Shown here: positions 15,667 through 64,000 of the stretch, in pieces
Position numbering within the stretch: position 1 is the stretch's first letter
Layout: each line of letters opens with the position of its first letter
NCBI GenBank assembly: GCA_045589455.1
Contig: JAZNPC010000010.1
Coordinates: 149-64,148 of the forward strand
Length of the DNA: 64,000 nt
Direction: 5' to 3'
Source of the DNA: Kiritimatiellia bacterium
GTDB taxonomy: Bacteria; Verrucomicrobiota; Kiritimatiellia; RFP12; UBA3636
Program-made: the position numbers and the translations under genes
The notes under the pieces: generated by a model
Databases searched by the model: none
Told to the model about the DNA's origin: nothing
Seen by the model: only the letters and a program-made list of their open reading frames with translations

Positions 15667-17277
15667 TTACTTGTTTGCTTTACGATAGCGCTCGATTAGA
15701 GCGTTTGTAGAAGAATCATGTGCAAGTGGTGAATCAGAAGCTAGCTCAGGAGCAATCTTTGCTGCGAGTAGCTTACCTAGCTGTACACCCCACTGATCAA
15801 ATGAGTAGATGTTCCATAGAACGCCTTGTGTGAATACCTTGTGCTCGTATAGAGCAACAAGAGCACCAAAGGTCTCAGGAGTTAGCTCGTCTGCTAGAAT
15901 TGTTGAAGTAGGGCGATTGCCATCAAATACCTTGTGAGGAACTAGCTCCTCGCTTGCACCCTCTGCGCGAACCTCGTCAGCTGTCTTACCAAAAGCAAGA
16001 GCCTCTGTCTGAGCGAAGAAGTTTGCCATTAGGTTGTCGTGGTGAGGAGGAATTGCATTGTGAGAGCGGCAGAAGCCGATGAAATCAGCAGGAATTAGCT
16101 TTGTGCCCTGGTGAATTAGCTGATAGAAAGCATGCTGTCCATTTGTACCTGGCTCACCCCAGATGATTGGACCAGTCTGGTAGCTTACGCGGTTGCCCTG
16201 CTTATCAACATACTTACCATTGCTCTCCATATCTAGCTGCTGCAAATATGCTGGGAAGCGGGCTAGGTATTGATCGTATGGAAGAACAGCGTGGCTCTGT
16301 GCATTGTGGATGTTATTGTAAACAATGCCGATTAGAGCCATGATTACAGGTAGATTCTGCTCATATGGAGCCTCAGCAAAGTGCTTGTCCATTGCATGGT
16401 AGCCATCTAGCATGCGATAGAAGTTTTCTGGACCAATTGAAAGCATTAGTGGTAGGCCAATTGCAGAAGGAAGAGAGTAGCGACCGCCAACCCAGTTCCA
16501 GAAGCCAAACATATTAGCTGTATCGATACCAAACTTTGATACCTCTTCTGCATTTGTGGAAACAGCAACAAAGTGCTTTGCAACTGCTTCGTCTGCCTTT
16601 AAAGCGTCTAGTAGCCATGCGCGTGCTGTATGAGCATTTGTCATTGTCTCAAGAGTTGTAAAGGTCTTAGATGCAACGATGAATAGAGTTTCCTCTGGAT
16701 CCTTGCCATAAACTGCCTCAGCGAAGTGTGTTGCATCAATGTTTGATACAAACTCAAATACTAGGTCGCGCTGAGCATATGGCTTTAGTGCCATAGTTGC
16801 CATTGCTGGGCCAAGATCAGAGCCACCGATACCGATATTGATGATGTTCTTAATCTTCTTGCCTGTGTAGCCCTTCCACTCACCAGAGCGAACGCGGTCA
16901 GCAAAGCCAGCCATCTTCTCTAGAACCTCATTTACGTCTGGCATTACATCCTTACCATCAACATAAATAGGTGTGTTGGAGCGATTACGTAAAGCGATGT
17001 GTAGTACTGGGCGACCCTCTGTTACGTTGATTTTCTCGCCGGAGTACATTGCCTTGATAGCCTCATCAAGCTTGCATGTGCGAGCCATAGCAAATAGCTC
17101 CTGCATCATCTTGCGAGAAACAAGGTTCTTTGAATAGTCAAGTGTTAGGCCTGCGCCTTCAACTGTCATGTCCTGTGCGCGTGCAGCATCCTCAGCAAAT
17201 AGCTGACGTAGGGTAGTAGACTTTAGCTGCTCAGCCTCTGCGCATACATTCTTCCACTCTGGTAAATCCTGAAACAT
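15667..17277 (-). CDS. pgi: Glucose-6-phosphate isomerase
   Basis: 536 aa with full-length PGI-like sequence ([29 protein letters not shown]). Confidence 0.95.
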
Positions 17278-17491
17278 GGTTTATAACCTTTCTATATCCT
17301 TATAATATATTACTCCGAATATGTTTTGGGGGCTATATATCTAGATTTGTGTAATTTAAATATTATTGTTTTTGTTTGTTTCTTTAAAATCGAAAAAAGG
17401 ACGCGTATTAAACCATTTTTCTGCCAAAAAAGCAAGATTAAACGAGTGTTTAAATTGAAAAGTTGGCAGAAAAATGATTTTTGCCTGTTTT

Positions 17492-18721
17492 TTAGGCTTC
17501 CATTGCGTCTGCAAGAGCTTGACCGAACTCACTGCACTTTAGCTCTGTAGCGCCATCCATTAGACGAGCAAAGTCATAGGTTACCTTCTTCTCAGAAATT
17601 ACCTTATCCATTGCCTTAATGATTAAATCAGCAGCCTCTGTCCAGCCCATATAGCGAAGCATCATCTCACCAGATAGGATTAGAGAGCCAGGATTTACCT
17701 TGTCTAGGTTTGCGTACTTTGGAGCAGTACCATGAGTTGCCTCAAATACAGCAGTACCTGTTGTGTAGTTGATGTTACCACCAGGAGCAATACCAATACC
17801 ACCTACGCATGCAGCAAGAGCATCAGATGCATAGTCACCATTTAGATTTAGAGTTGCGATCACGCTATACTCTGCAGGGCGAGTAAGAATCTGCTGCAAG
17901 AATGCATCGCAGATGCAATCCTTGATAACAATCTCTTTACCTGTCTTAGGATTCTTGAAGCTGCACCATGGACCATCACCGATTATCTCTGCACCAAACT
18001 CCTCACGAGCTAAAGCATAACCCCAATCACGGAAGCCACCCTCAGTGAACTTCATGATGTTGCCCTTGTGAACTAGAGTAACATTTGGTCTATCGTTCTC
18101 AATAGCGTAGTTGATAGCTGCGCGGATTAGACGCTCTGAGCCTTCCTTAGAAACTGGCTTAATACCAATAGAAGAAGTCTCTGGGAAGCGAATCTTCTTT
18201 ACGCCCATCTCGTTCTGTAGGAAATCGATTACCTTTTGTGCATTCTCTGTGCCCTGCATCCACTCAATACCAGCATAGATATCCTCTGTGTTTTCACGGA
18301 AGATAACCATGTCTGTTAGCTCTGGGTGCTTAACAGGAGAAGGAACACCTTGGAACCAGCGTACAGGACGCAAGCATACATACAAATCAAGCTCCTGTCG
18401 TAGAGCAACATTTAGAGAGCGGATACCGCCACCAACAGGAGTAGTTAGAGGACCCTTGATGCCAACTAGATACTTGCGAAATGCTTCAAGTGTCTCAGGT
18501 GGTAGCCAAATATCCTTGCCAGCTAGCTTGTTTGCTTTCTCGCCAGCATAAACCTCTAGCCAATCAATTTTACGCTTGCCGCCATATGCCTTCTCAACAG
18601 CTGCATTCCATACAACCATTGCTGCACGTGTGATGTCTGGACCAGTTCCGTCACCCTCAATAAATGGGATTGTTGGATTATCTGGTACATTTAATTTGCC
18701 GTCACAAATTGTAATTTGCAT
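17492..18721 (-). CDS. icd: NADP-dependent isocitrate dehydrogenase
   Basis: ORF 17492-18802 runs up to the neighbour's stop. I prefer the ATG at 18721 ([10 protein letters not shown]...; AAGGG upstream). IDH signatures are present ([23 protein letters not shown]). Confidence 0.93.
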
Positions 18722-51082: not shown

Positions 51083-51504
51083 ATGCGTGACGATATAAAT
51101 TTTGATGAAGAAAAGCTAAAAAAGAGCAGTCCAAGTATGCCCCAAAGGATGAGAATGAGATTAAAGAGAAGGTTTTAAATAAAGAAGAAAAGTTGAATAG
51201 CAAGTTTTCTACAATAGAAAAGTTAAAGCCTTATTGGGACGATTTTAAAACAATTTTCTCTATGATTAAGGATTGCGTTACTGGAAAGTATAAAGAAACA
51301 CCATTTACAACAATTGCTAGCTTAGCTGGTGTATTAATTTATGTTCTTTCTCCAATTGATTTAATGGCTGATTTCATTCCACTTCTAGGATATGTGGATG
51401 ATGCTGCAATCTTGGGTCTTGCCATTAAACTAGCTGCTGCAGATATTGAAAAATATCGTCAGTGGAAAAAGACAATAGATGTAGAAGAAAAGCAGGTCAA
51501 CTAA
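51083..51504 (+). CDS. DUF1232/YkvA-family membrane protein; full-length product requires a -1 frameshift at 51118-51124 (otherwise TTG start at 51193)
   Basis: AGGAG lies 7 nt upstream of ATG 51083, opening a 31-codon ORF. The DUF1232 frame (..YVLSPIDLMADFIPLLGYVDDAAILGLAI..) is open from 51109 and is reached by a -1 slip on A AAA AAG. Confidence 0.55.
51118..51124 (+). other. Candidate -1 ribosomal frameshift heptamer A AAA AAG (or homopolymer indel site)
   Basis: In the ATG-51083 frame the codons read cta-aaa-aag. X XXY YYZ = A AAA AAG, the same heptamer as the E. coli dnaX site. Confidence 0.35.
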
Positions 51505-51584: not shown

Positions 51585-52172
51585 ATGAATAACATAGATA
51601 CTGGCCACGGAGCTGAAATTGCAGTAGGCTTAAGGAGTTGCTCTTCGATTATCCTTGTCCCTATTATTGCAATATGCTCAGGCATTATCATTGGTAAAGA
51701 GTACGGAACAGTTGTTGGTATTCTTGGTGGTATTGTTTGTAGCTCTATCTTTTTTAAGCTTTACCATAGGTTTATCGCTACGCAGATTAAAGGACTTACA
51801 GTACTAGACTGCTTGATTCCGTTTTTAGTTTCACTCGTTTCTGGTGTCATTTTTGCTCCAGTGTCACTTTTTTCAGCTAGTGTCTTTTCAATAGCCACAT
51901 GTATTTACTCTGGAGTACTATTGTCAGCAACACTATTCTTGTATAAGGCACAAAAAGTGTCTGTAGGATACCTTGTATTCCCATTTCTAGTCTTTATGTA
52001 TGAAATATTACCTATAGAGCTACCAACGGATCTAGATAACATATTTGCGCTTTCTGGTAATACAGTTCATCAGTTTATTGCATTAACTGCAGCTAAGATG
52101 AAAAAATCGCTCTCTAATGATTCTCCTACCTCAACAGATGACGAGACCATTATTGATGTCGACCCAGAGTAG
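51585..52172 (+). CDS. Polytopic membrane protein of unknown function (about 5 TM, acidic C-terminal tail)
   Basis: 195 aa with successive hydrophobic, G/S-rich segments. The tail is SNDSPTSTDDETIIDVDPE. Confidence 0.55.
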   Translation: MNNIDTGHGAEIAVGLRSCSSIILVPIIAICSGIIIGKEYGTVVGILGGIVCSSIFFKLYHRFIATQIKGLTVLDCLIPFLVSLVSGVIFAPVSLFSASVFSIATCIYSGVLLSATLFLYKAQKVSVGYLVFPFLVFMYEILPIELPTDLDNIFALSGNTVHQFIALTAAKMKKSLSNDSPTSTDDETIIDVDPE

Positions 52173-52248
52173 AAGCATATTTGGTAAATATATTTTATTT
52201 TGCATAGTATCATTTCTATGATGTAATAAAGAAATAAAGAAAGTTTTT

Positions 52249-53868
52249 ATGTGTTTATGGATTGTTGTTGGTTCTATTTTAGCATTTATTATAACAATAT
52301 GTATTATGTATTGGAATGTTGTTAAAATTTTATTAATTATAGTTGCTATAATTTATGTGCTATCTTTATTAGTCAGCTTAATTAAAAAAGTAATTAAAAA
52401 GGTTGAGCATGAAAATGAGTTGAAATTATTTGCTATAAATGAAGAGAATAAAACCGAAGAAAAAAAACAAAACATAAATTTCAAAAAGTTGTCAAATATA
52501 CTTTTTGTATCAACAATAGATTTAAGAGAGCATCCATTAAAAAACGAAAAGTATAAAAAACGTAAACAATATTTTGAAGTATTAATGTTTCTAATTAATA
52601 ATTCAGTGATTTCAGAAAAATTGAAAGATTTTACTGAAGGTCGTTTATCTATGTATTTTGATTGTTTGTTGCCTGAATTGATGTCTGAAAAGAGTGAAAT
52701 ATTAAATCAAAAAATAGAAGAAAAGGTTTTTATAAAAAAATTAATGCCTTTGTTTTATTTTGCTAATGTAAAGTATTCATATATATTTCTGTCAGATTTG
52801 TGTTTGTTTCTTCAAGAAGAATCGCTAATTTCATATGCAATAGTTGTATTAAAACGATATCTACCCAAATTTATGTGGGCAAAAATAGATAAAAAATATT
52901 ATAGAATTAAAAATTTATCAGTAATATCTGAAAAATATAAGCAGATTGCTGTTTTAATAGAGCAATATAAAACCAATATTGAATTTTTTGCTAGAAAGGA
53001 AAAAAGGGTAATTGTTACAGCTCTTGTTAGTGCAGGAAAATCAACACTAATTAATTCTTTAATTGGAGAAAGATTAACTAGAACAAAATCGGAAATTTGT
53101 ACAAGTAATTTGGCATACATATATAATAAAGCCTATAATGATGGGACCCTTCATTTTTATCAAAATGATAATAAAAAATCTTCTATAAACCAATGTGTGT
53201 GCTTTAATGCAAGTGAAGATGACATAAATACTTATGATATAAATGAAAAAATAAATGTTTCTGCATCGTTTTTAGGTGTTTACTCAAATTGGTCTAGAAT
53301 TTGTTTAATAGATACACCAGGGGTTGATGCTGCTATTAATGTGGAACATGGGGAGTGTACAAAAAAAGCTCTTTTAAATGAGTGTTATGATATGATTCTT
53401 TATGTGGTAAGTCCAAATCAAATAAGTACGGATTCACAAAAAGAATATTTAAAATGGATATTAAATAATCTTCCTAAAAAAAAGATAGTTTTCGTTATTA
53501 ATAAATTAGATACATTAAAACCTAAAGAAGATAGTATAGCTGATACAATATTTAATTTTTATAAAGATTTATGTGATATCGGTTTTAAGAATCCTACTAT
53601 TTGTCCAATATCTTCTTATTTTTCTTTCTTATTAAAGCAAAAAATATCAGGAAAAGACTTTTCCGAAGATGAAATTGACGATTTTAGGTTTTATAGTAGT
53701 AGGTTTTCTAAACCATTTTATAATTTATCAGGATATTATAACGAAGAATTAGAAGATATTAATCTTGAAATAAATGATTTATTGCAATTAAGCAAACGTT
53801 GTGGTTTATATGGTATTGAAAAAATAATAAATGAGGAAATAAATGAAAAAAATATTTATAAAATATAA
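52249..53868 (+). CDS. Membrane-anchored dynamin-like GTPase (LeoB/C-like)
   Basis: 539 aa with N-terminal TM helices (aa 1-45). G1 is ALVSAGKST (53020-53046), G3 is DTPG (53311-53322) and G4 is NKLD (53500-53511). Confidence 0.75.
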   Translation: MCLWIVVGSILAFIITICIMYWNVVKILLIIVAIIYVLSLLVSLIKKVIKKVEHENELKLFAINEENKTEEKKQNINFKKLSNILFVSTIDLREHPLKNEKYKKRKQYFEVLMFLINNSVISEKLKDFTEGRLSMYFDCLLPELMSEKSEILNQKIEEKVFIKKLMPLFYFANVKYSYIFLSDLCLFLQEESLISYAIVVLKRYLPKFMWAKIDKKYYRIKNLSVISEKYKQIAVLIEQYKTNIEFFARKEKRVIVTALVSAGKSTLINSLIGERLTRTKSEICTSNLAYIYNKAYNDGTLHFYQNDNKKSSINQCVCFNASEDDINTYDINEKINVSASFLGVYSNWSRICLIDTPGVDAAINVEHGECTKKALLNECYDMILYVVSPNQISTDSQKEYLKWILNNLPKKKIVFVINKLDTLKPKEDSIADTIFNFYKDLCDIGFKNPTICPISSYFSFLLKQKISGKDFSEDEIDDFRFYSSRFSKPFYNLSGYYNEELEDINLEINDLLQLSKRCGLYGIEKIINEEINEKNIYKI

Positions 53869-56134
53869 CCCTTATTATTTGGAAACAAAATTTACTATAG
53901 ATGGTAAATCTCTTCCTACAAATAGTGAAATTAATGCACGTATTAATCAACCTGATGTGCGTCTACAAGAGTGGATAGAAGATTTACCTCAGCTTTTGAT
54001 TGATGAATGTAACGATAAGAAGTTTGACATTCAATTTCATGGTACTATATTAGATTACGAAGATGTTAAAGAGGTGTTTGAATGTGCTTCTAATGAAGAA
54101 AAGTTAGAGGTGAAGCTAGATAGAATACCTGCAAAAGAAACATCTGAAAAGGAATCTTTAATTGAAGATGTATTTAAAGAAATACAAAATGGACCTATTG
54201 ATGAACTACGTGATGAGAAAATAATTAATGCATTTAATAATGCAAAAAATAGTGAGTTTGAAATTTGTGTTGTAGCTACAATGAGTGCAGGTAAGTCTAC
54301 ATTGATAAATTCAATGCTTGGAGACAAAATGATGCCTTCAAGTCAAGAGGCTTGCACGGCCATTATTACTAGAATTAAAGATGTTGATTCAAATGTTAAT
54401 TGGCATGCTAAAGTATTTGGAAAAGATAACGAACTATTAGAATCAGTTGAAAGTCTTACATATGAAGAGATGGATAGATTTAATAGAGATTCTAAAGTAT
54501 CTTTAATACAAGCCGAAGGTAATATTCCTTTTGTAACCTCACAAAAAACTTCACTAGTTTTAATTGATACTCCTGGTCCAAATAATTCTAGAGATAAAGA
54601 ACATGAAAAAGTTCAAAGTAGATTTTTAGGTAAGTCGTCTAAAGCACTTGTCCTTTATATTATGGAAGGGACATATGGAAATAATGACGACAATGAATTG
54701 CTTCGTAAGGTTGCAGAGAGTATGAAGTCAGGCGGAAAGCAATCTAAAGACCGTTTCCTTTTTGTTATAAATAAGGTTGATGATCGTAAGCAAGAAGATA
54801 GTAAAATGGAGGATATGCTTTTAAGAATTAAGGACTATTTACAAATACATGGAGTTAAAAATCCAAATTTATATCCTGCAGCAGCTTTACCCGCACTTAA
54901 CATAAGATTAATGCAATCACATAATGACATTCTTGATGAAGACATTCTTGATGAAACAGAATTTAAAGTTAAAAAGTTAAATAGAAATGTTGATTTGCAT
55001 TTAGAAAAGTATTCTTCATTACCATTAAGCCTTAGAAGAAAAATTGATTCTGATTTAGAAATTGCTAAAAATAATGGAGATGTGTTTACACAGGCCTTAA
55101 TTCATACAGGAATAGTTTCTGTTGAGACGGCGATTCGTCAATATGTTGAAAAATATGCAAAAACAGCGAAAATTAAAAATATTGTAGATACTTTTAAAGG
55201 AAAATTAGAGGCTGTTTCTTATGAACAAGAAATGAAGAAAGAGATTGCTAAAAATGAAGAAGAGTGTGAAAAGATTACTGCACAAATAAGTTCGATAGAG
55301 AGTCAAATTAAAGACGGAAAAAATGCTCAAGTATTTAAAAAAGAAGTTTCAAAAGCATTGAAAAAAGTTAAAAAAGAAATAGAGGAAAAGATTAATCAAA
55401 ATGTAGAAGAGTTTCAAAATGAATTATTGGAAATAATTAACACATATGGGAATGATGATATTCCCGTTGAAAAAATCTCTTCAATTTTGTCTCAGGTAAG
55501 TAAAAAGGTAAAGTCAATCGAAGCAAATTTTCAAGTTGCTTTAGAGGGATCAATCAATACTGGATTAATATCAACAAGTAAATATCTTTTAGAAGAGTAT
55601 AAAACAAAACTATCATCGTTAACAAAAGATATAGATTTGAAAAACCTTTCAGGAGTTTTTATTGACCCATTGAAGTTAATGTCAGGTAGTGTTCCAAGTA
55701 TAGATAGCTTAAATATTGATGTAGAAGAAAAAGAAGAGGTAGTAGGTGAAGAATGGATTGAAAATACAAACAAAAAATGGTGGAAGTTTTGGACTTGGTT
55801 TGATGATCCTGGTCATTATATAACAAAGTATAAAACTGTAAAATATGTTTTAGGTAGCGAATTAGCTCAAGAAATGCTCGCACCTATAGAGGATACATTA
55901 ATTCAAAACGGAGAATCTGCATTAAAACAAGCGTTATATCAATCTCAAAGAATAGCGGAAAAATATGAGAAAGAGTTTGTTCGTTTAGATGATGTATTGA
56001 CAAAAAAATTGCGTGAGTTAAAACAAATTACTTCTGATAAAACAAACAAAGAGAAGTTGATTAACGATGCACAAGGAAAATTAAATTGGTTAGATAATAT
56101 TAAGAAAAGAGTTGATTCGATTCTTGAAATATAA
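53843..56134 (+). CDS. Large dynamin-like GTPase with helical stalk (LeoA/DynA-like)
   Basis: 763 aa. G1 is ATMSAGKST (54275-54301), G3 is DTPG (54566-54577) and G4 is NKVD (54770-54781). The C-terminal ~360 aa are K/E-rich and helical, with a Trp-rich patch WIENTNKKWWKFWTWF (55754-55801). The start overlaps the previous ORF by 26 nt; GAGGA Shine-Dalgarno upstream. Confidence 0.8.
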   Translation: MKKIFIKYNPYYLETKFTIDGKSLPTNSEINARINQPDVRLQEWIEDLPQLLIDECNDKKFDIQFHGTILDYEDVKEVFECASNEEKLEVKLDRIPAKETSEKESLIEDVFKEIQNGPIDELRDEKIINAFNNAKNSEFEICVVATMSAGKSTLINSMLGDKMMPSSQEACTAIITRIKDVDSNVNWHAKVFGKDNELLESVESLTYEEMDRFNRDSKVSLIQAEGNIPFVTSQKTSLVLIDTPGPNNSRDKEHEKVQSRFLGKSSKALVLYIMEGTYGNNDDNELLRKVAESMKSGGKQSKDRFLFVINKVDDRKQEDSKMEDMLLRIKDYLQIHGVKNPNLYPAAALPALNIRLMQSHNDILDEDILDETEFKVKKLNRNVDLHLEKYSSLPLSLRRKIDSDLEIAKNNGDVFTQALIHTGIVSVETAIRQYVEKYAKTAKIKNIVDTFKGKLEAVSYEQEMKKEIAKNEEECEKITAQISSIESQIKDGKNAQVFKKEVSKALKKVKKEIEEKINQNVEEFQNELLEIINTYGNDDIPVEKISSILSQVSKKVKSIEANFQVALEGSINTGLISTSKYLLEEYKTKLSSLTKDIDLKNLSGVFIDPLKLMSGSVPSIDSLNIDVEEKEEVVGEEWIENTNKKWWKFWTWFDDPGHYITKYKTVKYVLGSELAQEMLAPIEDTLIQNGESALKQALYQSQRIAEKYEKEFVRLDDVLTKKLRELKQITSDKTNKEKLINDAQGKLNWLDNIKKRVDSILEI

Positions 56135-56145
56135 AGGAGTATATT

Positions 56146-56664
56146 ATGCCTTTAACTAAAGCATTTTATGAAGCAATAAGAACAAAAAATGTTCGTCGAG
56201 TTAGAATAATGTTAAAAAATAGCCTTGTTGTTGATCCATCCTTTTCTGAATATAAATCAATGATTGATATTGCATCTAATTTAGAAGGATTGTTTGATGA
56301 GCATGATGGAAAGATTTTTAATAATGAAAAAAGTTTTTGGAACGATGAATATGTAAGTAAAGAAATGGCAAGACTTATTTCTAATTTTTCTAAGGAAAGA
56401 ATTGATCATTTAAAGGATGTTATTCGTTTCTTGAATCCGATGAATACTAATCAACAAAAGCATTATGGTAAATCCAAAAGGTTTTCACATCAAAAGAGAA
56501 AAATAATTACAGGAGCAGTTGTTGGTGCTACAATTGGTGCATTGTTAGGTAATGTAATAAATGACGAGAATGGAATTGTGTCAGTATTATTCGGAGTTGC
56601 AGGAGCTATAGCTGGTAGTGTTGTTGTGAATTGTATCTCTAATGAGGATAAAGGAAATGAGTGA
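56146..56664 (+). CDS. Glycine-zipper two-TM membrane protein of unknown function
   Basis: 172 aa with AAGGAG Shine-Dalgarno upstream. The C-terminus is ITGAVVGATIGALLGNVI...VSVLFGVAGAIAGSVVVNCI (nt 56503-56637). Confidence 0.6.
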   Translation: MPLTKAFYEAIRTKNVRRVRIMLKNSLVVDPSFSEYKSMIDIASNLEGLFDEHDGKIFNNEKSFWNDEYVSKEMARLISNFSKERIDHLKDVIRFLNPMNTNQQKHYGKSKRFSHQKRKIITGAVVGATIGALLGNVINDENGIVSVLFGVAGAIAGSVVVNCISNEDKGNE

Positions 56665-59600
56665 TAGAGTTGTTTTGGTCAAAGACCATAATTTGAACAA
56701 TTCAATTTTGACGGATGATAATCTTATTGGACAAGGAGAGGGTAAATTTCCTTCGATAACTAAATTGGAGTCAAATTTAAAAGAATCAAGTAAGCTTGTA
56801 CAAGATATTGTTTTGAAAAATTATTTACACAAGTTAAAAGATTTAGAAGTTGTTCCTTTGCCCAATGAATTCAAAGATATAAATAAGCTTCGAATTTTTG
56901 AAATAAACGAAATGGTTTATCAAAAGGATGAATATTCAACCTATAAATTTGCTTCTGTTTTTAGCTCTTTACAAAGCTTAGATTGTGGAGTGTTTATTAT
57001 TGTCAATAGCAATGGAGAAAAAACAGATTTTTATATGGGAGTTCGTTCTAAAGATAATAATCGTACTACTAAATCTTTAAAAGATACTTTGAAAAATGCT
57101 TTGATTGGGCATTTCCCTGGTGTTAAAGTGAAAGATATGTTAGACCCAGAAGTAGAGGATTTTTTATCTGAAATTTCAAAAAATAATGTATCTTCAGTAT
57201 CATGTATTGCTAATAATAAAGATGAAGATTTTAAGAATAATGATAATTTTATCCAAGGTCTTGAAAAATTGGCTTTAGCAATGCAAGGGAAAAAATATAC
57301 TGCTATAGTGCTAGCAAACTCTATTAATAATAGTCAAATTTCGGATGTTCGGAGTGCTTATGAAACCATTTACACTCAGATATCTCCTTTTGCTAATATG
57401 CAACTTTCATATGGGACGAATACTGCTTTAAGTATTTCTGATGCTTTGTCTAAAGGAGCTACAACAGGAAGTTCTTATTCTAAAAATATAGGTACTTCTA
57501 GAGGAACTTCAACATCAAGTGGGGATACATATTCCGAATCAGCTTCAAAGCCTGACATTTTATCTTCTGGATTAAAGATTGCGGGGGCTGCTATTTTAGG
57601 AGCCGCTGCTATAGCTACTGCTATTCCTACAGGAGGGGTTAGTTTAGCAGTAGCTGGAGCAGCTATAGTGAATTCAATTCCAATGGTAACCAAAACCAAA
57701 GGTCGTTCTCACTCAAAAAACAAATCTCAAAGTGTAACATCTAACGAAGGTGAAACATTTGGAGAAAATTCTAGTACTTCTGAAAATGCTACCCATACTA
57801 TAGGAGAAACCATTGGAAAAACAGAAAATATGCAGTTAACAATGCAAAATAAAACATTGTTAAATACATTGGAGAAAATAGATTGTCAGTTACAACGTCT
57901 TAATGAGTGTGAAAGTTTAGGGATGTGGGAATGTGCTGCGTATTTTATGTCAGATAGTTTAGAAACTGTTGAGATGGCCGCAGGAACATATAAGGCTTTA
58001 ATGAAAGGCTCTAAATCAGGTGTTGAAACATCCGCAATTAATACTTGGGGATGGTATGAAAAAAATAAAATTCCAATATTATGTGAATATATTACAAATT
58101 TTATACACCCAATATTTGCCTACCCTACAGATGGAGAATTTATCCCAGTGACTCCAGCATCAATGGTAAGTAGTAATGAGCTTGCAATTCAAATGGGGTT
58201 GCCTAGGAAATCTGTATGTGGTTTTCCTGTTGTTGAACATGCTGAATTTGGAAAAGAGGTTGTTTCTAACTTAGACATTAAATCCTCAAGAACTATTCCT
58301 ATTGGGAATATTTTTTCTATGGGTTCAGAAACAAAAACACCAGTTAAATTAAGTATAGATTCATTGACAATGCATACATTTGTGACTGGTTCAACAGGTT
58401 CAGGTAAGAGTAATACATTATATGAGATTTTGTATCAATTGCATAATTTCAATAATGTCCCTTTTCTAGTAATAGAACCAGCAAAAGGTGAGTATAAAAA
58501 CATTTTTGGAAATTCTCATAATGTGTCAGTATATGGAACGAATGCAAAGAAAACTGAGGTCTTAAAAATAAACCCTTTTAGTTTCCCAGATGATATTCAT
58601 GTATTAGAGCATTTGGATAGACTAGTAGAAATATTTAATGTATGTTGGCCAATGTATGCTGCGATGCCCGCAATTTTGAAGGAAGCAATTGAAAAGGCAT
58701 ATATTTCTGTTGGTTGGGATTTGATTGATTCAATAAATGTCAATGGAAATATATTCCCAAATTTCACTGATGTTTTAGAACAAATTGAGATTGTTATTAA
58801 TGAGTCTCAATATTCAAAAGATTGTAAAGGAGATTATTCTGGTGCTTTAACAACGAGAATTCGCTCTATGACAACAGGTTTAAATCGTCTTATTTTTACA
58901 CAAAATGAAATTTCTAATTCTGATTTATTTGATAAAAGTGTTATTGTTGATTTAAGTAGAGTTGGATCTACAGAAGAGAAAGCTTTAATTATGGGAGTTC
59001 TTGTAATGAAGCTGAATGAATATAGAATGACATCAGGGAAGATAAATAGCTCATTGTCTCACATAACAGTTTTGGAAGAAGCACATAATTTGTTGAAGCG
59101 TACATCAACAGAACAAAGCTCAGAGAGTTCAAACCTTCTTGGTAAATCAGTAGAAATGCTCTCAAATTCTATCGCAGAAATGCGTACATATGGAGAGGGA
59201 TTTATTATTGCTGATCAAGCACCAGGTTTGTTAGACATGTCTGTAATACGAAATACAAATACAAAAATTATACTTCGTTTGCCAGAGAAAAGTGATAGAG
59301 AATTAGTTGGTTATGCTGCTTGTTTAAAGGATAATCAGTTAGATGAAATCTCTAAGCTGCATAGAGGCGTTGCGGTAATATATCAAAATGATTGGATAGA
59401 GCCAGTTCTTGTACAGATTAGAAAATGCAATTTAGAAGAGAATTCTTATTCATACAACCCGCCATCAAAACAAACATCAAAACCGAATGTCTTGAAGCAA
59501 TTGATAAATTTTTTAATATGTAATAATGTTAGGGAAAAATTAGATTTCTCTATTGCAGATATAGAGCAAGGAATAGATTTTTTAGCTTTGTCTTCGTCAA

Positions 59601-59950
59601 ATTTAAATTTTATTAAAAAACTACTTGGAGAATATAAAAAGTTTAATTCATTAGAAATATGGAGTAACCATAAATATAATTCACTTGCTTTAAATATAGT
59701 GAATATTCTTAATCTTAGAAATAAAATTGAGCAATTAGTTTTAAATTCATCTAATAACTCATCGTTAACACATGATTTAAAAGAAATTGTTTTAGATATA
59801 TTCCCAAAATCTTCTGAATCATTTATTATGACTTTAATACATTTGTTTATGAAGGACTTTAGTTTAAGTCGAGAGGAAAATGAACAACGTACTAAAATAT
59901 ATTTAAATTGGTTAAGTTATATTACAAAATATGGAGTAAAAAATGATTAA
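56657..59950 (+). CDS. Membrane-embedded HerA/FtsK-superfamily P-loop ATPase (N-terminal domain, S/T/G-rich segments, 2 TM, DUF87/HerA-like ATPase, C-terminal helical domain)
   Basis: ORF 56642-59950. I prefer the ATG at 56657 (GGATAAAGGAA upstream; ATGAGTGA overlap with the previous stop). Walker A is GSTGSGKS (58388-58411) and Walker B is ITVLEEAH (59063-59086). IIADQAPGLLD...NTNTKIILRL follows. The TM pair LKIAGAAILGAAAIATAIPTGGVSLAVAGAAIVNSIPMV spans nt 57563-57685. Confidence 0.75.
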   Translation: MSDRVVLVKDHNLNNSILTDDNLIGQGEGKFPSITKLESNLKESSKLVQDIVLKNYLHKLKDLEVVPLPNEFKDINKLRIFEINEMVYQKDEYSTYKFASVFSSLQSLDCGVFIIVNSNGEKTDFYMGVRSKDNNRTTKSLKDTLKNALIGHFPGVKVKDMLDPEVEDFLSEISKNNVSSVSCIANNKDEDFKNNDNFIQGLEKLALAMQGKKYTAIVLANSINNSQISDVRSAYETIYTQISPFANMQLSYGTNTALSISDALSKGATTGSSYSKNIGTSRGTSTSSGDTYSESASKPDILSSGLKIAGAAILGAAAIATAIPTGGVSLAVAGAAIVNSIPMVTKTKGRSHSKNKSQSVTSNEGETFGENSSTSENATHTIGETIGKTENMQLTMQNKTLLNTLEKIDCQLQRLNECESLGMWECAAYFMSDSLETVEMAAGTYKALMKGSKSGVETSAINTWGWYEKNKIPILCEYITNFIHPIFAYPTDGEFIPVTPASMVSSNELAIQMGLPRKSVCGFPVVEHAEFGKEVVSNLDIKSSRTIPIGNIFSMGSETKTPVKLSIDSLTMHTFVTGSTGSGKSNTLYEILYQLHNFNNVPFLVIEPAKGEYKNIFGNSHNVSVYGTNAKKTEVLKINPFSFPDDIHVLEHLDRLVEIFNVCWPMYAAMPAILKEAIEKAYISVGWDLIDSINVNGNIFPNFTDVLEQIEIVINESQYSKDCKGDYSGALTTRIRSMTTGLNRLIFTQNEISNSDLFDKSVIVDLSRVGSTEEKALIMGVLVMKLNEYRMTSGKINSSLSHITVLEEAHNLLKRTSTEQSSESSNLLGKSVEMLSNSIAEMRTYGEGFIIADQAPGLLDMSVIRNTNTKIILRLPEKSDRELVGYAACLKDNQLDEISKLHRGVAVIYQNDWIEPVLVQIRKCNLEENSYSYNPPSKQTSKPNVLKQLINFLICNNVREKLDFSIADIEQGIDFLALSSSNLNFIKKLLGEYKKFNSLEIWSNHKYNSLALNIVNILNLRNKIEQLVLNSSNNSSLTHDLKEIVLDIFPKSSESFIMTLIHLFMKDFSLSREENEQRTKIYLNWLSYITKYGVKND

Positions 59951-60896
59951 TAATTTTGACATTAGTAATATCAATAAATTTAACAATGAACTAAAGGATT
60001 GTAATTTATATAAGCAGATTGAAGGAGAAGATAAAAAAAAATCAGGAATAGAAAAATCTCTGGATAATGTTTGTACTCAAGAAACAAATCCAAGTGTTGA
60101 TGAACAAGGACATGTATATAGAAAAGAGAATGGAGATTTGCTCCCTAATAATAATTTCGTGATGGGTGAAAATACATTTAAAACAGATGATAATGGCAAA
60201 ATCTACGCTATAGATGGAAAACTTGTTCCAGAAAATAAGTATGAATTAAATTGTGCTTCGTATGAAACAGACGAATTGGGACGTATTAGAAAAGTAGTTG
60301 CTCAAGACTTAAAGATAACACCAGAAAACTTAAGAGATTCCACAGCACAAACTTTAGTTGGCGGCAAAGATAGATTGCTAGGAGATAATGGCGGTCATTT
60401 GGTTGCTCGTATACATGGGGGCGATGCTGGTATTGGAAATCAAGTAGCTGTTCGCGACGTAATTAATAAAGGTGATTGGAAGATTGATGAGAATACAATA
60501 AGTGATTTAATAAAAAAAGGTAAAAATGTCAGGACGGAAGCGGAAATTTTTTATGATGGTAATTCTGAGCGACCATCTAAAATAGAGATTTCAATCTATT
60601 CTAATGGAGAAAAAATAAGCGAAGCTGTTTATGATAACAATATTGGATCGAAGGATTTATTAGGATTGGAAAAACTTAAAGATATATTAAGCCCTAGTGA
60701 TTATCAAAACCTTTGCGATGAAATTTCTCAATTAGAAAAAAATGGAGATAAGGTTAGTATTACTTCTGTAACATTTAAGTCAGGAGAAGATCCTTCAATA
60801 GCAGTGAGAAATGAAACAACGGAAAAAACTTGTTATTGGCCATGGAATACACGCAATGAAGGAAAAACATTGAGTGATGTATTTCACAATTCATAA
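59943..60896 (+). CDS. His-Me finger nuclease, Endonuclease_NS_2-like (EsaD/YeeF-type toxin domain)
   Basis: 317 aa. The start overlaps the ATPase stop (ATGATTAA). The pre-toxin pattern YETDELGRIRKV is present. Catalytic pattern: GDNGGHLVARIHGG (60381-60407) ..GNQVAV..INKGDWKIDEN..NVRTEAEIFYDGNSERPSKIEISIY. There is no signal peptide or TM. Confidence 0.7.
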   Translation: MINNFDISNINKFNNELKDCNLYKQIEGEDKKKSGIEKSLDNVCTQETNPSVDEQGHVYRKENGDLLPNNNFVMGENTFKTDDNGKIYAIDGKLVPENKYELNCASYETDELGRIRKVVAQDLKITPENLRDSTAQTLVGGKDRLLGDNGGHLVARIHGGDAGIGNQVAVRDVINKGDWKIDENTISDLIKKGKNVRTEAEIFYDGNSERPSKIEISIYSNGEKISEAVYDNNIGSKDLLGLEKLKDILSPSDYQNLCDEISQLEKNGDKVSITSVTFKSGEDPSIAVRNETTEKTCYWPWNTRNEGKTLSDVFHNS

Positions 60897-60916
60897 ACAA
60901 CAGGTAGGTGTAAATA

Positions 60917-61309
60917 ATGGAAATAACTATAACCTATGAAGAGGTTTCTAATATAATAAAAACCAAATCTAATGTAAATGCGACATTTACAATGATTGAC
61001 AGCGAATCAATAAGTGTTAAAGTTAAACCTGGATTGCTTATTCCTGCGGTTAATATAACCTTAAAATTAGAAAAAGATGCTAAAGAGTATAAAATTCGTT
61101 ATGGCTCTGGTGTTGTGTCTCTTCTAGTAACAAAAATAGTAAATTTGTTCGTAAATGATAAACTACCTGAATTTGTCAGATTAGATACATCGAATAATAC
61201 TTTATCTTTTGATTCTACAATTAAGCATAATGGGATTGTTGTAGATATTAAGGATATTACATTTTTAGAAGAAAAAATTTCAATATCTTTATTTTTAAAA
61301 GATTTGTAA
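60917..61309 (+). CDS. Small beta-rich protein, candidate cognate immunity/inhibitor of the upstream nuclease
   Basis: 130 aa, 20 nt after the nuclease stop, with AGGTAGGTG Shine-Dalgarno upstream. The role is inferred from position only; I recognise no motif. Confidence 0.4.
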   Translation: MEITITYEEVSNIIKTKSNVNATFTMIDSESISVKVKPGLLIPAVNITLKLEKDAKEYKIRYGSGVVSLLVTKIVNLFVNDKLPEFVRLDTSNNTLSFDSTIKHNGIVVDIKDITFLEEKISISLFLKDL

Positions 61310-61734
61310 AATTATCAGTCATCTCATATTGCTCAACCTAAATTCGGTGTTGCGCATCTGAGTTATTCACCAGATTATTCTAATGTCAAAATCATCACTT
61401 AACAAAATCAATGACCGGCTTTAATTATGCTACAATGAAGGGTTAAAAAAAGCAACAATCAAAGCATTGTCTCCTAAGTATTATGTATTTGTAGAAGTTT
61501 GATAGGTTTTTGGAATAAAAATCATTGTCTATTTTATTAGAGTTAGTATTGTGATTTGTAAGCATTTGTAGTTGTATTTTTGTTCCACCTTCCATAAGAT
61601 TTATTCGTCAAATGAGGAATAAACAAATGTAGGCGGGATGTGCTGCTAGGGTTCCGTGAAATCGCCAAGGCCGTATTTCGGCAATATGATGAATGACCTA
61701 ACACCATTCCGCTTACTTCTTTTAAGGAGATTAT

Positions 61735-62451
61735 ATGAACGAAAACATTTTGCAAGCAAAACTAGATAAATTGTTTGATAATTGGAAGGCAGCAATAGAT
61801 GCTTGTCCAGAAATTCCTGCAGAAATTAAGGAATGCTTCGTGCGCGATGGCTTCTATCCAGGCTACCTAAACCAAAAGTGTAAGGTGCTGTTTGTGGCTC
61901 GCGAATCACTTAGTGTTGAAGGAGATTATATAAAAGAGGTTTTTGATGCATATAAAAGTAAACGTGTTGGTGGCAAAAATATCAATCAGTATCAATTCCA
62001 TGCGTTAATGATGTATATAGCATATGCTCTAAATAATAATTGCTTTGATTGGAATAGCATTCCTTGGGCAGAAAAGCTCTGCGAGACATTTGGTACGCCT
62101 GGCGGACTTAGCTTCGCTTTTATGAATTTGTCTAAATTCAGTAATTGGTCGAAATCTAGTTGGCAAAGTAATTGGAATTTGATAAATTCTTCTCTAAATG
62201 TTAGTGGCAACGATTCTTTCATCAAACAGGAAATTGAATTGCTAGACCCAGATGTAATTATTACTATGAATTTAGATGGTAATTTAAGTTACTTGGGTGA
62301 AATGCGCAAGATTGTTAATACCACCGATATCAATAAATATGCTTACAAGATCAATGGTAAGGAAATACCTCTCTACGATATGTGGCATTTTTCTGCCCCA
62401 AGTAAGTCGCCAAGAGGAAATTATTTGGAGCCACTTAGTAAATTAGTTTAA
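61735..62451 (+). CDS. Hypothetical protein, possibly uracil-DNA-glycosylase-fold
   Basis: 238 aa with AAGGAG Shine-Dalgarno upstream. It loosely resembles UDG-superfamily motif positions (KVLFVARES ... LDPDVIITMN ... WHFSAPS). Composition is closer to the core genome. Confidence 0.3.
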   Translation: MNENILQAKLDKLFDNWKAAIDACPEIPAEIKECFVRDGFYPGYLNQKCKVLFVARESLSVEGDYIKEVFDAYKSKRVGGKNINQYQFHALMMYIAYALNNNCFDWNSIPWAEKLCETFGTPGGLSFAFMNLSKFSNWSKSSWQSNWNLINSSLNVSGNDSFIKQEIELLDPDVIITMNLDGNLSYLGEMRKIVNTTDINKYAYKINGKEIPLYDMWHFSAPSKSPRGNYLEPLSKLV

Positions 62452-62465
62452 AAGGGAGAAAAAAC

Positions 62466-62666
62466 ATGGCAAAGCAACGTGTTGATTTGACAGATAAGAA
62501 GTGTGCTACCTGTCGTTGGTGGCAAGGTGATCGTGAGGTGATATTTTGGTCTCGTAAGCCATTTAAAGTCGAGTGCGATGCACAAGGTATGTGTCCATCC
62601 TGCAAGCAAAATAAGACCTATAGCTTTAGCTGCAGAAATTGGGTTCCATGGGAAAAGCTTCCATAA
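62466..62666 (+). CDS. Small Cys-rich protein (CxxC ... C ... CxxC ... C)
   Basis: 66 aa with GGGAGAAAAAAC upstream. Cysteines occur in CATCRWW, ECDAQGMCPSC and FSC. Confidence 0.4.
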   Translation: MAKQRVDLTDKKCATCRWWQGDREVIFWSRKPFKVECDAQGMCPSCKQNKTYSFSCRNWVPWEKLP

Positions 62667-62748
62667 TGCTACGTTTGACAGTTAATTACTGAATTTAGAT
62701 TAAAAATATAAATGAGGTTTTATAACTTAAAGTAAGGAAAAAAGTAAT

Positions 62749-64000
62749 ATGAGAAGTTGTCTAACTGTGTTTTTAGGAATCGTTATTATTGGTGCTATTC
62801 TTCTGATATATTTCTTTTGGGAAGCAATAATAGCGTTATTATTAGCGTTGTTACAAATAGTTTTGACATTTATTGCAATAGTGGTGGGAATTGTGGTAAT
62901 GATTGCTGTAGTAAGTTATTTTAGGAAAAGAAAAATAAAAGAATTAGCACGCTTAGAGCGGGAAAGAAATGCTACATTAGAAAATAGAATTCGAGAAGAA
63001 GTTTATATACCGGTTCCTGAATATGCAGTTACATCTAACAATTATTATGAATGCTTACACATTCTTGAAGAAGCTGCAGATTATAAAAGAAGGATTGAAA
63101 ATGCTTCATCAAAGCTTGAAAAGAGCCAATTAAAAAATGAGTTGTCTAATTTCAGGCTTAAATCATTCTATGTTATTTCTCTACGTCATGAAGTTGATGA
63201 AGAAAAATGGGCGTCTTATGAAACAAAGATTAATAATATTTTATCTAAAAATGGTGATTGGAATTTGCTAAGAATAGAAGATAATGAAAAATCATTAGTT
63301 ACTGGAAAATACGAAGCTAAAGTAAAAAATAATTTAGGTAATATAACATTGAGGCTTGAGGATAATAATATCGATGATGTCATTAAAAGAGTTGATTTGA
63401 TTAAAGATTTTGATACATCAGGTATTTTTACAACGCACAGTTTGACTAAGCTTAATGATAAAACAGAACAAATGACTAAATGTTATGATTCTATTGAGAA
63501 GAGGTATAAAGAGCTATCGGATGTGGGTGAAATAACTAATAAGATTTTGGTAGAAGCTCGTGGTGCTGCATATCGGAATATTTTCTTAGGTGTAGAACTT
63601 TTGAATTATATTAGAGATAATTCTGGAGGAACGGGGCTAAAGGTTCAACATGATTCGGTTGATATGCAAGAAATTAATCTTTCAACAGATATTCCATTAA
63701 GTAGTTTGAATATTGATTTTGGAGAAGTTTTGAAAGTGGGTTTGTTTAACAAAGAAGGCACTAAAGCTATTTCAAGAATTTTGAAAAATCCTAAGAGTAT
63801 TGGTTACAATAGTGCTTTAATTGGCATTTCTGTTGCAAAAGAACTTTTAAAAGCACGTAATAAAGCAATTCAGGCAAATATAAAACAACAAAAGGAACTG
63901 ATAAAATGTATTGACGATGCTTGTAAAAATTATACAAATACTCGTGCTCAAATGTTTAGAGCAATTGAAATAGTTAAAGCGATTGTTCATTCAAATGCAG
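62749..64000 (+). CDS. Membrane-anchored coiled-coil protein of unknown function (3'-truncated by the window end; absent from the ORF track)
   Basis: I translated it by hand. ATG 62749 has AAGGAAAAAAG upstream, and the frame stays open for 417 codons to 64000. The N-terminus MRSCLTVFLGIVIIGAILLIYFFWEAIIALLLALLQIVLTFIAIVVGIVVMIAVV gives two or more TM segments, followed by K/E-rich helical sequence. The region is AT-rich. Confidence 0.6.
   Translation, partial: MRSCLTVFLGIVIIGAILLIYFFWEAIIALLLALLQIVLTFIAIVVGIVVMIAVVSYFRKRKIKELARLERERNATLENRIREEVYIPVPEYAVTSNNYYECLHILEEAADYKRRIENASSKLEKSQLKNELSNFRLKSFYVISLRHEVDEEKWASYETKINNILSKNGDWNLLRIEDNEKSLVTGKYEAKVKNNLGNITLRLEDNNIDDVIKRVDLIKDFDTSGIFTTHSLTKLNDKTEQMTKCYDSIEKRYKELSDVGEITNKILVEARGAAYRNIFLGVELLNYIRDNSGGTGLKVQHDSVDMQEINLSTDIPLSSLNIDFGEVLKVGLFNKEGTKAISRILKNPKSIGYNSALIGISVAKELLKARNKAIQANIKQQKELIKCIDDACKNYTNTRAQMFRAIEIVKAIVHSNA

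Follow-up and report, generated by a model that had tools for sequence, protein, structure and literature searches.

The window analysed here is a stretch of 64,000 nucleotides from contig JAZNPC010000010.1 of a Kiritimatiellia bacterium (assembly GCA_045589455.1). At 52249-61309 it carries an operon that opens with two genes for dynamin-like proteins (DLPs), designated as DLP1 and DLP2. The pair consists of heterotypic, paralogous proteins. The operon, of which it forms the first module, is self-contained and horizontally mobile and has the order DLP1, DLP2, glycine-zipper membrane protein, membrane-anchored HerA-type ATPase, leader-bearing nuclease toxin, and immunity-like open reading frame (ORF). 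The genes are coded on the same strand and tightly packed: DLP1 and DLP2 overlap by 26 nt, the small membrane protein and ATPase genes by 23 nt, and the start of the toxin gene overlaps the stop of the ATPase gene by 8 nt. An earlier reading of this DNA (the original prediction) described the two GTPase ORFs as coding for 539 and 763 amino acids (aa) with an overlap of 26 nt, exactly as they were found here. It also said that the pair is embedded in a larger operon, an important point that it under-read.

The conserved polymorphic-toxin cassette has six to seven genes, and the DLP pair represents one module of it. The composition and conservation of this dynamin-HerA-toxin cassette are regarded as well established. 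It is also very probable that its output is a leader-bearing, exchangeable DNase together with a cognate immunity protein. The object is apparently an undescribed dynamin-HerA polymorphic-toxin cassette, that is, a polymorphic toxin or conflict system with new machinery. No published description of the combination was found in a literature coverage that is incomplete, so that an earlier description elsewhere is possible. PADLOC-DB 2.0 does not contain the cassette, and for none of the cassette proteins does an NCBIfam model attain its cut-off. The features are collected in Table 1.

Table 1. Features of the cassette and of its island, in positions of the window (AF2, AlphaFold2; HMM, hidden Markov model; TM, transmembrane)
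Feature	Size or residues	Position	Strand	Basis
DLP1, short dynamin-like GTPase	539 aa	52249..53868	+	Pfam Dynamin_N, AF2, Foldseek, locus position
Predicted TM segment(s) of DLP1	aa ~3-47	52255..52389	+	Kyte-Doolittle
DLP2, long BDLP/IniA-like dynamin-like GTPase	763 aa	53843..56134	+	Pfam Dynamin_N, AF2, Foldseek
N-terminal alpha/beta domain of DLP2	aa 1-97	53843..54133	+	AF2, conservation
Trp/Lys-rich tip motif of DLP2, WIENTNKKWWKFWTWF	aa 638-653	55754..55801	+	AF2, conservation
Small membrane protein	172 aa	56146..56664	+	hydrophobicity, weak Pfam, locus position
HerA-type (DUF87) P-loop ATPase	1102 aa	56642..59950	+	Pfam, PDB profile, motif conservation
Polymorphic toxin, ~60-aa leader and Endonuclease_NS_2 DNase/RNase domain (aa 99-220)	317 aa	59943..60896	+	Pfam, leader HMM
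Putative immunity protein	130 aa	60917..61309	+	position only
Low-GC island with the cassette		52173..64000	.	composition profile; right end past the window

Conservation of the cassette and exchange of its toxin

An alignment-based genome scan revealed 79 related loci, which come from Clostridia, Bacilli, Negativicutes, Synergistota, Proteobacteria, a metagenome-assembled genome (MAG) of Planctomycetota, and MAGs of Bacteroidota. Three further loci were added by plasmid searches. The core order, with DLP1 directly upstream of DLP2 and followed by the small protein in one or two copies and an ATPase of about 1100 aa, is kept in essentially every complete locus and on the three plasmids. Complete cassettes are carried by the conjugative plasmid pB26B of Lactococcus cremoris (L084, NZ_CP032437, 40013-50518), the IncI conjugative plasmid pTW10590_133 of the enterotoxigenic Escherichia coli (ETEC) strain TW10590 (L085, NZ_CP035852, 49932-58331), where the cassette adjoins the etpBA adhesin genes, and the non-mobilizable plasmid pTS2 of Treponema saccharophilum (L086). 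The plasmid cassettes are annotated just as "dynamin family protein", "ATP-binding protein", "HNH endonuclease", and "SMI1/KNR4 family protein".

At some loci the cassette lies beside a MobA/MobL relaxase and a serine recombinase. It was found in one of 5426 complete E. coli genomes, and no match was obtained in the phage collection. A WYL or WYL-WCX regulator is coded directly upstream on the same strand in about 40 of about 74 loci; in the window, tblastn identified none. The flanks of 61 loci are heterogeneous, and neither a defence island nor secretion genes stand out among them.

The four core proteins co-evolve, with Spearman coefficients of 0.64-0.92 between their pairwise identities, and the ATPase is the most conserved protein of the cassette. 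Similarity of the toxin warheads is uncorrelated with the machinery (0.15-0.2).

The toxin of the window matches Pfam Endonuclea_NS_2 with E 1e-20. A leader HMM recognized it with E 5e-7 and recognized no other ORF of the window. Motifs of the leader are F-x-[DE]-x-x-E, F-[AE]-[DE]-S-P-L-G-K, and D-K-P-[LI]. At 53 loci, the gene after the ATPase was assigned to Colicin-DNase/WHH (30), LHH (7), Endonuclea_NS_2 (6), Gln deamidase (1), or SprT-like peptidase (1), and the rest are unassigned. The C-terminal parts of the toxins form eight unrelated clusters, all behind a common leader of about 60 residues. As an example, the toxins of L001 and L018, one of the NS_2 and the other of the Colicin-DNase type, share 70% identity in residues 1-64 (E 4e-28). 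Each locus has one leader-bearing ORF according to the leader HMM, always after the ATPase, with L064 and its two such ORFs as the sole exception. These are in tandem after the ATPase (L064:16112-16978 and 17251-17895), which suggests a second toxin cassette.

The protein coded behind the toxin in the window has no family match in Pfam, PADLOC, or NCBIfam. In relatives, of which 48 were scanned, the ORF in this place belongs to DUF6985 (17), SUKH/SMI1_KNR4 (14), or a YezG-like family (2). Because the leader stays constant while the warhead is swapped together with the cognate immunity gene, the cassette bears the signature of a polymorphic toxin. An NS_2 nuclease with immunity of the YezG/EsaG type is the pairing known from the type VIIb substrates YeeF-YezG and EsaD-EsaG. 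A constant N-terminal part with exchangeable toxin domains is the defining pattern of polymorphic toxin systems (PMC3482391, PMC3113570), and neither of these two papers mentions dynamins or this gene neighbourhood.

The dynamin-like pair

DLP1 starts with ATG and matches Pfam Dynamin_N with 58.9 bits (E 8e-16, gathering score 27). Its G1 motif was located at A258..SAGKST266 (SAGKST261-266), G3 at DTPG355-358, and G4 at NKLD418-421. All three, and the switch-I residue T285, are invariant in 60 homologues. The AF2 model from the 60-sequence alignment has a mean predicted local distance difference test (pLDDT) of 89.2 and is composed of a helical bundle (102-248), the GTPase domain (251-466), and short C-terminal helices, in agreement with the "almost no stalk" of the original prediction. 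In Foldseek, the top matches are truncated "mini" mitofusins and Fzo1, and then BDLP and IniA. As the best fold matches are truncated mitofusins, DLP1 was interpreted as a neck-like bundle without trunk; judged by its model, it is a minimal mitofusin-like member of the dynamin superfamily.

The membrane anchor formerly proposed for DLP1 was confirmed for the ORF but not for the family. Residues 27-45 are hydrophobic, with a Kyte-Doolittle mean of 3.23. Typical homologues have about 435 aa and start at about residue 85-90 of DLP1 from the window; none of 73 homologues in related loci has an N-terminal TM segment like it. Among 120 database homologues, just three have an N-terminal TM extension, and these are mutually unrelated in sequence; the extensions unrelated to that of the window protein are those of P0162 and P0226 only. 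The extension is read here, from sequence comparison, as an occasional, independently acquired, lineage-specific membrane anchor. Its translation is likely, because about 80 additional codons stay open at the 5' end of the gene in DNA of 26% G+C. In the relative L083, which is 93% identical, the contig begins inside DLP1.

DLP2 starts with ATG as well and matches Dynamin_N with 61.5 bits (E 1e-16, gathering score 27). It has G1 at A145..SAGKST153 (SAGKST148-153), G3 at DTPG242-245, and G4 at NKVD310-313, all invariant in 86 homologues together with the switch-I residue T172. The ordered G1, G3, and G4 motifs had thus been correctly read in both ORFs, and the E-values of both proteins are well beyond chance. 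At the sequence level, BDLP and mitofusins are the solved structures that match. Its AF2 model from 86 sequences (pLDDT 79.4, predicted template modelling score 0.73) comprises an alpha/beta domain (1-97), helices (100-135), the GTPase domain (138-360), and a helical neck and stalk (366-760). The stalk contains very long helices at 424-470, 472-490, 493-535, 542-592, 671-731, and 736-760. Of the K/E-rich helical region described originally, the long helices were recovered, and the enrichment is modest, with 25-30% K+E in the region vs 22% in the whole protein.

When the full-length model was searched in Foldseek, BDLP (2j69) was matched with E 1.7e-13 and IniA (6j72) with a template modelling score of 0.67; further matches are SynDLP, the Campylobacter DLP pair, and mitofusins, and LeoA (4aur) is the 13th. 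This modelled fold assigns DLP2 to the BDLP/IniA branch of the dynamin superfamily. Its stalk-plus-tip architecture is supported because the matches to BDLP, IniA, SynDLP, Campylobacter DLPs, and mitofusins extend over the full length. In the library clustered at 50% identity, homologues of DLP2 count 3521 representatives, 636 of them at E<=1e-30. In one relative of 1101 aa (P0095), the GTPase domain is preceded by a near-identical copy of itself, a sign of recent duplication within the protein or else of an assembly artefact.

The N-terminal domain of DLP2 was modelled confidently (block pLDDT 82-93). Across 30 diverse sequences, the residues N9, P10, R40, Q42, W44, G67, D71, and D74 do not vary. 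No Pfam match was found for it, and a profile search of PDB returned nothing significant. The domain is characteristic of this DLP2 family, as a signature of it, and may serve for docking.

The tip motif WIENTNKKWWKFWTWF lies inside a low-confidence loop (598-668), at the turn between the antiparallel helices 542-592 and 671-731, and contains five of the eight Trp residues of DLP2. The family consensus is [KR][KR]-W-[YFW]-K-P-W-T-W-F. Aromatic residues at 646, 647, 650, and 652 are retained in 68-72 of the 86 homologues, which are only 27-59% identical overall. Topologically, the motif stands where BDLP has its paddle. The stalk is therefore interrupted by a conserved Trp-rich patch in a paddle-like position, as had been proposed, and the motif is a candidate membrane-binding "paddle" that may insert into the membrane. 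From this motif and the TM extension of DLP1, we infer that the two proteins may self-assemble in a GTP-dependent way and bind or remodel membranes.

The GTPase domains of DLP1 and DLP2 are 24% identical (E 3e-17) and the proteins are paralogues. Fused DLP1-DLP2 proteins of 1170-1460 aa, two-headed like DynA, are frequent among relatives. Examples are L009:7328-10951 and the proteins P0003, P0241, P0243, P0250, and P0276, some with a further N-terminal extension of about 200 aa. Because such natural fusions exist and the two proteins co-evolve, DLP1 and DLP2 are considered true partners.

Membrane protein, ATPase, and genomic surroundings

The 172-aa protein has a soluble N-terminal part and a C-terminal two-helix glycine-zipper hairpin with hydrophobic segments at aa 120-138 and 143-161. 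Its Pfam matches, to Glycine zipper 2TM and SLATT_1, are weak. Nearly all loci have homologues in this place, after DLP2 and before the ATPase, and 76 of 92 homologues retain the hairpin. No informative Pfam match was obtained for the small proteins and their TM-less paralogues. Two paralogues are present in L032, L033, L034, L037-L039, L043, L046, L051, L052, L061, L062, L076, and L081. Since the first copy in two-copy loci is without the C-terminal hairpin, it may be a soluble adaptor. Enlarged small proteins of 300-344 aa were noted in L021, L054, and L055.

The ATPase consists of a conserved N-terminal domain, a Ser/Thr-rich region, a Gly/Ala hydrophobic hairpin (about 306-349), the ATPase domain (about 545-935), and a variable tail. 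Pfam recognized a single DUF87 domain with 55.8 bits, and a profile search of PDB retrieved HerA-type chains only, including those of Sir2-HerA and DUF87 defence complexes. Both Walker motifs, A (GSGKS583-590) and B (EEAH812-815), are invariant. NCBIfam models for CedD, HerA, and "serine-rich protein" match it in part, all under cut-off, and the HerA models of PADLOC give partial matches only. At aa about 255-400 (57400-57850), small polar residues alternate with a periodicity of two on both sides of the Gly/Ala hairpin of about 40 aa. The alternating Ser/Thr/Gly pattern is conserved in 44 homologues, and some fragments match Gly-zipper models of Pfam; the region may be a disordered linker, a beta-hairpin stem, or a channel element. 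The membrane features of the small protein and the ATPase are conserved. With three components carrying conserved membrane features, the machine would be expected to act at the cytoplasmic membrane.

At about 52.1 kb, the G+C content of the window drops from about 0.40 to 0.26-0.32, and it does not rise again before the window end. Genes of the left flank are those of diderm housekeeping: OEP/TolC-like, MacB, HlyD, TonB, ExbD, and alpha-L-fucosidase. Because of this fall in G+C and the housekeeping genes at the left, the cassette was placed in a foreign, horizontally acquired island. The host was judged to be a diderm and probably Bacteroidota-like. A tRNA scan of the window found no tRNA gene as integration site. 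A promoter and terminator scan of the window was uninformative, as its counts equal the shuffled expectation; the host probably does without sigma-70-type promoters.

Left of the island, a DUF1232 membrane protein of 103 aa (51193-51504) and a protein of 195 aa that has some six hydrophobic segments (51585-52172) are coded. Their G+C content is host-like, they do not stand beside the cassette elsewhere, and they are probably unrelated host genes. Three more ORFs follow the cassette on the same strand in the same island, and none of them has a Pfam match. They code for a 238-aa protein with no family and no homologue in related loci (61735-62451), a Cys-rich protein of 66 aa (62466-62666), and a protein of >417 aa whose N-terminal part has a TM segment and whose long helical region is cut by the window end (62749-63999).

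Proposed function and comparison with known systems

Outward delivery of the toxin, against competitors, is the preferred reading, and it is held tentatively. It is favoured because of the toxin and immunity families and the logic of the leader. In this reading, a hexamer of the HerA-type ATPase would sit at the cytoplasmic membrane, anchored by its own Gly/Ala hairpins and by the hairpins of the small protein. The hexamer would recognize the toxin leader, strip off the immunity protein, and drive the toxin out of the producer cell. DLP1-DLP2 would bind the membrane via the Trp-rich tip of DLP2 and, in the window, also via the TM extension of DLP1. There, at the site of export, the pair would spend GTP on remodelling, tethering, fusing, or resealing membrane, e.g., by formation of vesicles or tubes, and the DNase would reach competitor cells that have no immunity gene. 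The full version of this proposal, a new protein-delivery system in which the HerA hexamer exports the leader-bearing DNase and the dynamin pair supplies GTP-driven fusion, fission, or tubulation of membrane by which the toxin leaves the producer or enters a neighbour, is possible but doubtful.

Several observations weigh against export. Signal peptides and TM segments are absent from the toxins, so that export is putative and would need the cassette's own machinery. The ATPase groups with HerA/DUF87 ATPases that handle DNA, not with EssC, FtsK, or VirD4, and its FtsK_SpoIIIE score is 22.2, under the gathering score of 24. Monoderms and diderms have the same gene set, which includes no outer-membrane component, and the warheads are almost all DNases. 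A BrxR/CapW-like WYL-WCX regulator, of a kind typical of phage-defence operons (PMC9122601), stands before about half of the cassettes. Anti-phage roles are known for DynA (PMC8844932) and for a two-gene dynamin system (bioRxiv 10.1101/2022.05.11.491447). The leader co-varies weakly with the tail of the ATPase (partial r 0.27); with partial r <=0.27 for the ATPase segments, leader co-variation was not used as evidence.

Much of this would fit an intracellular, membrane-coupled defence against phages or incoming plasmids, which is quite conceivable without being probable. Here, the DLP pair would sense or stabilise membrane perturbed by DNA injection, and the membrane-anchored HerA translocase, loaded with the DNase through the leader, would shred the entering DNA or kill the cell. 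The immunity protein would shield the chromosome from free nuclease, and the WYL repressor would hold the operon off until a signal comes. The regulator directly upstream, the strong DNase bias of the effectors, the single effector per system, and the same gene set in monoderms and diderms all count for it. So do the nearness of the ATPase to HerA and DNA-translocating models, among them the HerA chains of Sir2-HerA and DUF87 defence complexes, the carriage on conjugative plasmids and mobilisable islands, and the phage protection that DLPs give in B. subtilis and as the two-gene system. Absence of the cassette from the phage collection is neutral. Against defence, PADLOC and NCBIfam defence models reach neither full length nor cut-off, and the flanks are without clear enrichment of defence islands. 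Moreover, we know of no HerA- or DLP-based defence system with dedicated immunity genes and warhead swapping. Dedicated immunity genes of the SUKH, YezG, and DUF6985 kinds, with warhead and immunity swapped on a fine scale while the leader stays constant, are what marks out secreted polymorphic toxins (PMC3482391).

Rather unlikely is a selfish element, in which toxin and immunity protein would form an addiction or exclusion module and the DLPs and HerA would serve the element's own DNA traffic or entry exclusion. It would agree with the conjugative plasmids of Lactococcus and E. coli, the adjoining MobA/MobL relaxase and serine recombinase, and the low-GC island of the window, and HerA/FtsK-type ATPases pump DNA. 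Four large conserved genes and a docking leader, however, far exceed the needs of addiction, many loci have no mobility genes within 10 kb, and the cassette stays whole as it passes between unrelated contexts.

It is very improbable that the two DLPs form a separate system, of the Eleos/LeoABC type or for housekeeping, which merely adjoins an unrelated ATPase-toxin module. Tandem DLP genes are the bacterial norm (PMC6104087), and PADLOC gives weak matches to LeoA and LeoBC, which would be in line with it. Yet DLP, small-protein, and HerA genes keep the same order in essentially all loci of many phyla, in overlapping frames, and the divergence of the core proteins of the cassette is correlated. 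A specific match to LeoA and LeoBC, whose split/partnered logic was invoked in the original prediction, was not supported either. The LeoA family model (NF041922) scores 38.7 bits, far under its cut-off of 325, and the PADLOC models cover only about 80 residues of the GTPase core (LeoA with 49 bits at aa 347-427, LeoBC with 25 and 16 bits); membership in Eleos was rejected.

P-loops of a non-dynamin TRAFAC family (Era/EngA-like), with unrelated coiled coils as the helical regions, are hardly credible: secondary matches to MMR_HSR1, Era, and EngA models exist, but Era and EngA reach 30-36 bits vs cut-offs of 237-307, Dynamin_N scores higher than MMR_HSR1 and above the gathering score in both DLPs, and the full-length folds match BDLP, IniA, and mitofusin. 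Neither a placement outside the dynamins nor a missing stalk and paddle architecture, the two outcomes named beforehand as refuting, was seen in profiles or folds, and the assignment of both proteins to the dynamin superfamily stands, with structural matches that also include SynDLP and Campylobacter DLPs.

Most bacterial dynamin-like proteins have no defined job. The firm genetic linkage of this DLP pair with an ATPase, a leader-bearing toxin, and an immunity protein offers a direct, testable read-out of dynamin function. If the toxin is exported, the cassette would give polymorphic toxins a new mode of trafficking, in Clostridia of gut and rumen, on lactococcal dairy plasmids, and on an ETEC plasmid; if the delivery-system proposal is true, it would be the first dynamin-based bacterial toxin-delivery route, spread by plasmids over monoderm and diderm phyla. 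If the toxin acts inward, it would be a new defence architecture in which membrane surveillance by dynamins is coupled to local destruction of DNA. With 636 clusters at 50% identity and E<=1e-30, the family is large; it is also mobile and present in cultivable, genetically tractable hosts, Lactococcus and E. coli.

Among known proteins, BDLP of Nostoc punctiforme (2j68/2j69) and IniA of Mycobacterium (6j72) have, like DLP2, a GTPase domain, a helical neck/trunk hairpin, and a tip element for membrane binding, which in DLP2 is a putative one. Identity with DLP2 is only 11-13%, the additional N-terminal alpha/beta domain of about 97 aa is a feature of DLP2, and the genomic context is entirely different. 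The tip of DLP2 is a conserved Trp/Lys motif and not the paddle sequence of BDLP. Tandem and fused DLP pairs are common in bacteria (PMC6104087). DLP1/DLP2 of Campylobacter jejuni (5owv/5oxf) are likewise tandem paralogous DLPs and structurally match both proteins of the window. DynA of B. subtilis is a head-to-tail fusion, as are relatives of the window pair. In contrast to the C. jejuni pair and DynA, DLP1 of the window is a minimal GTPase with a bundle, similar to a truncated mitofusin, and pairs of the window type are firmly linked with a HerA-type ATPase and a toxin module. Equivalence with DynA was rejected, as NF052648 scores 41.3 bits vs a cut-off of 1600 and the window genes are separate. 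With Eleos (LeoA and LeoBC), a possible role in phage conflict is shared; Eleos is a stand-alone two-gene system (bioRxiv 10.1101/2022.05.11.491447), whereas the window-type pair always precedes a small protein and a HerA-type ATPase.

The type VIIb systems EsaD-EsaG and YeeF-YezG share with the cassette a constant N-terminus with exchangeable nucleases (WHH, LHH, Colicin-DNase, Endonuclease_NS_2), SUKH/YezG-type immunity directly downstream, and a membrane ATPase of the FtsK-HerA superfamily. In contrast to them, the cassette has no EssC-type multi-domain ATPase or other genes of the type VII secretion system (T7SS), its leader has about 60 aa, and its machinery includes two dynamins and glycine-zipper proteins. 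WXG100 and LXG families were found neither in the cassette toxins nor among the commonest flank families. Membership in T7SSb was rejected on account of the single DUF87 domain, FtsK_SpoIIIE under the gathering score, the PDB profile with HerA only, and no WXG/LXG.

Archaeal HerA-NurA, Sir2-HerA, and DUF4297-HerA share the HerA/DUF87 ATPase, intact Walker motifs, and a translationally coupled nuclease neighbour. A known HerA anti-phage system with a fixed Sir2 or DUF4297 effector was rejected, with 60 bits for HerA_antiphage (NF042943) vs a cut-off of 800 and a polymorphic effector. Compared with these HerA-effector systems, the ATPase of the cassette is twice as long, with its N-terminal domain, Ser/Thr-rich region, and Gly/Ala hairpin, and its effector is polymorphic and has an immunity protein.

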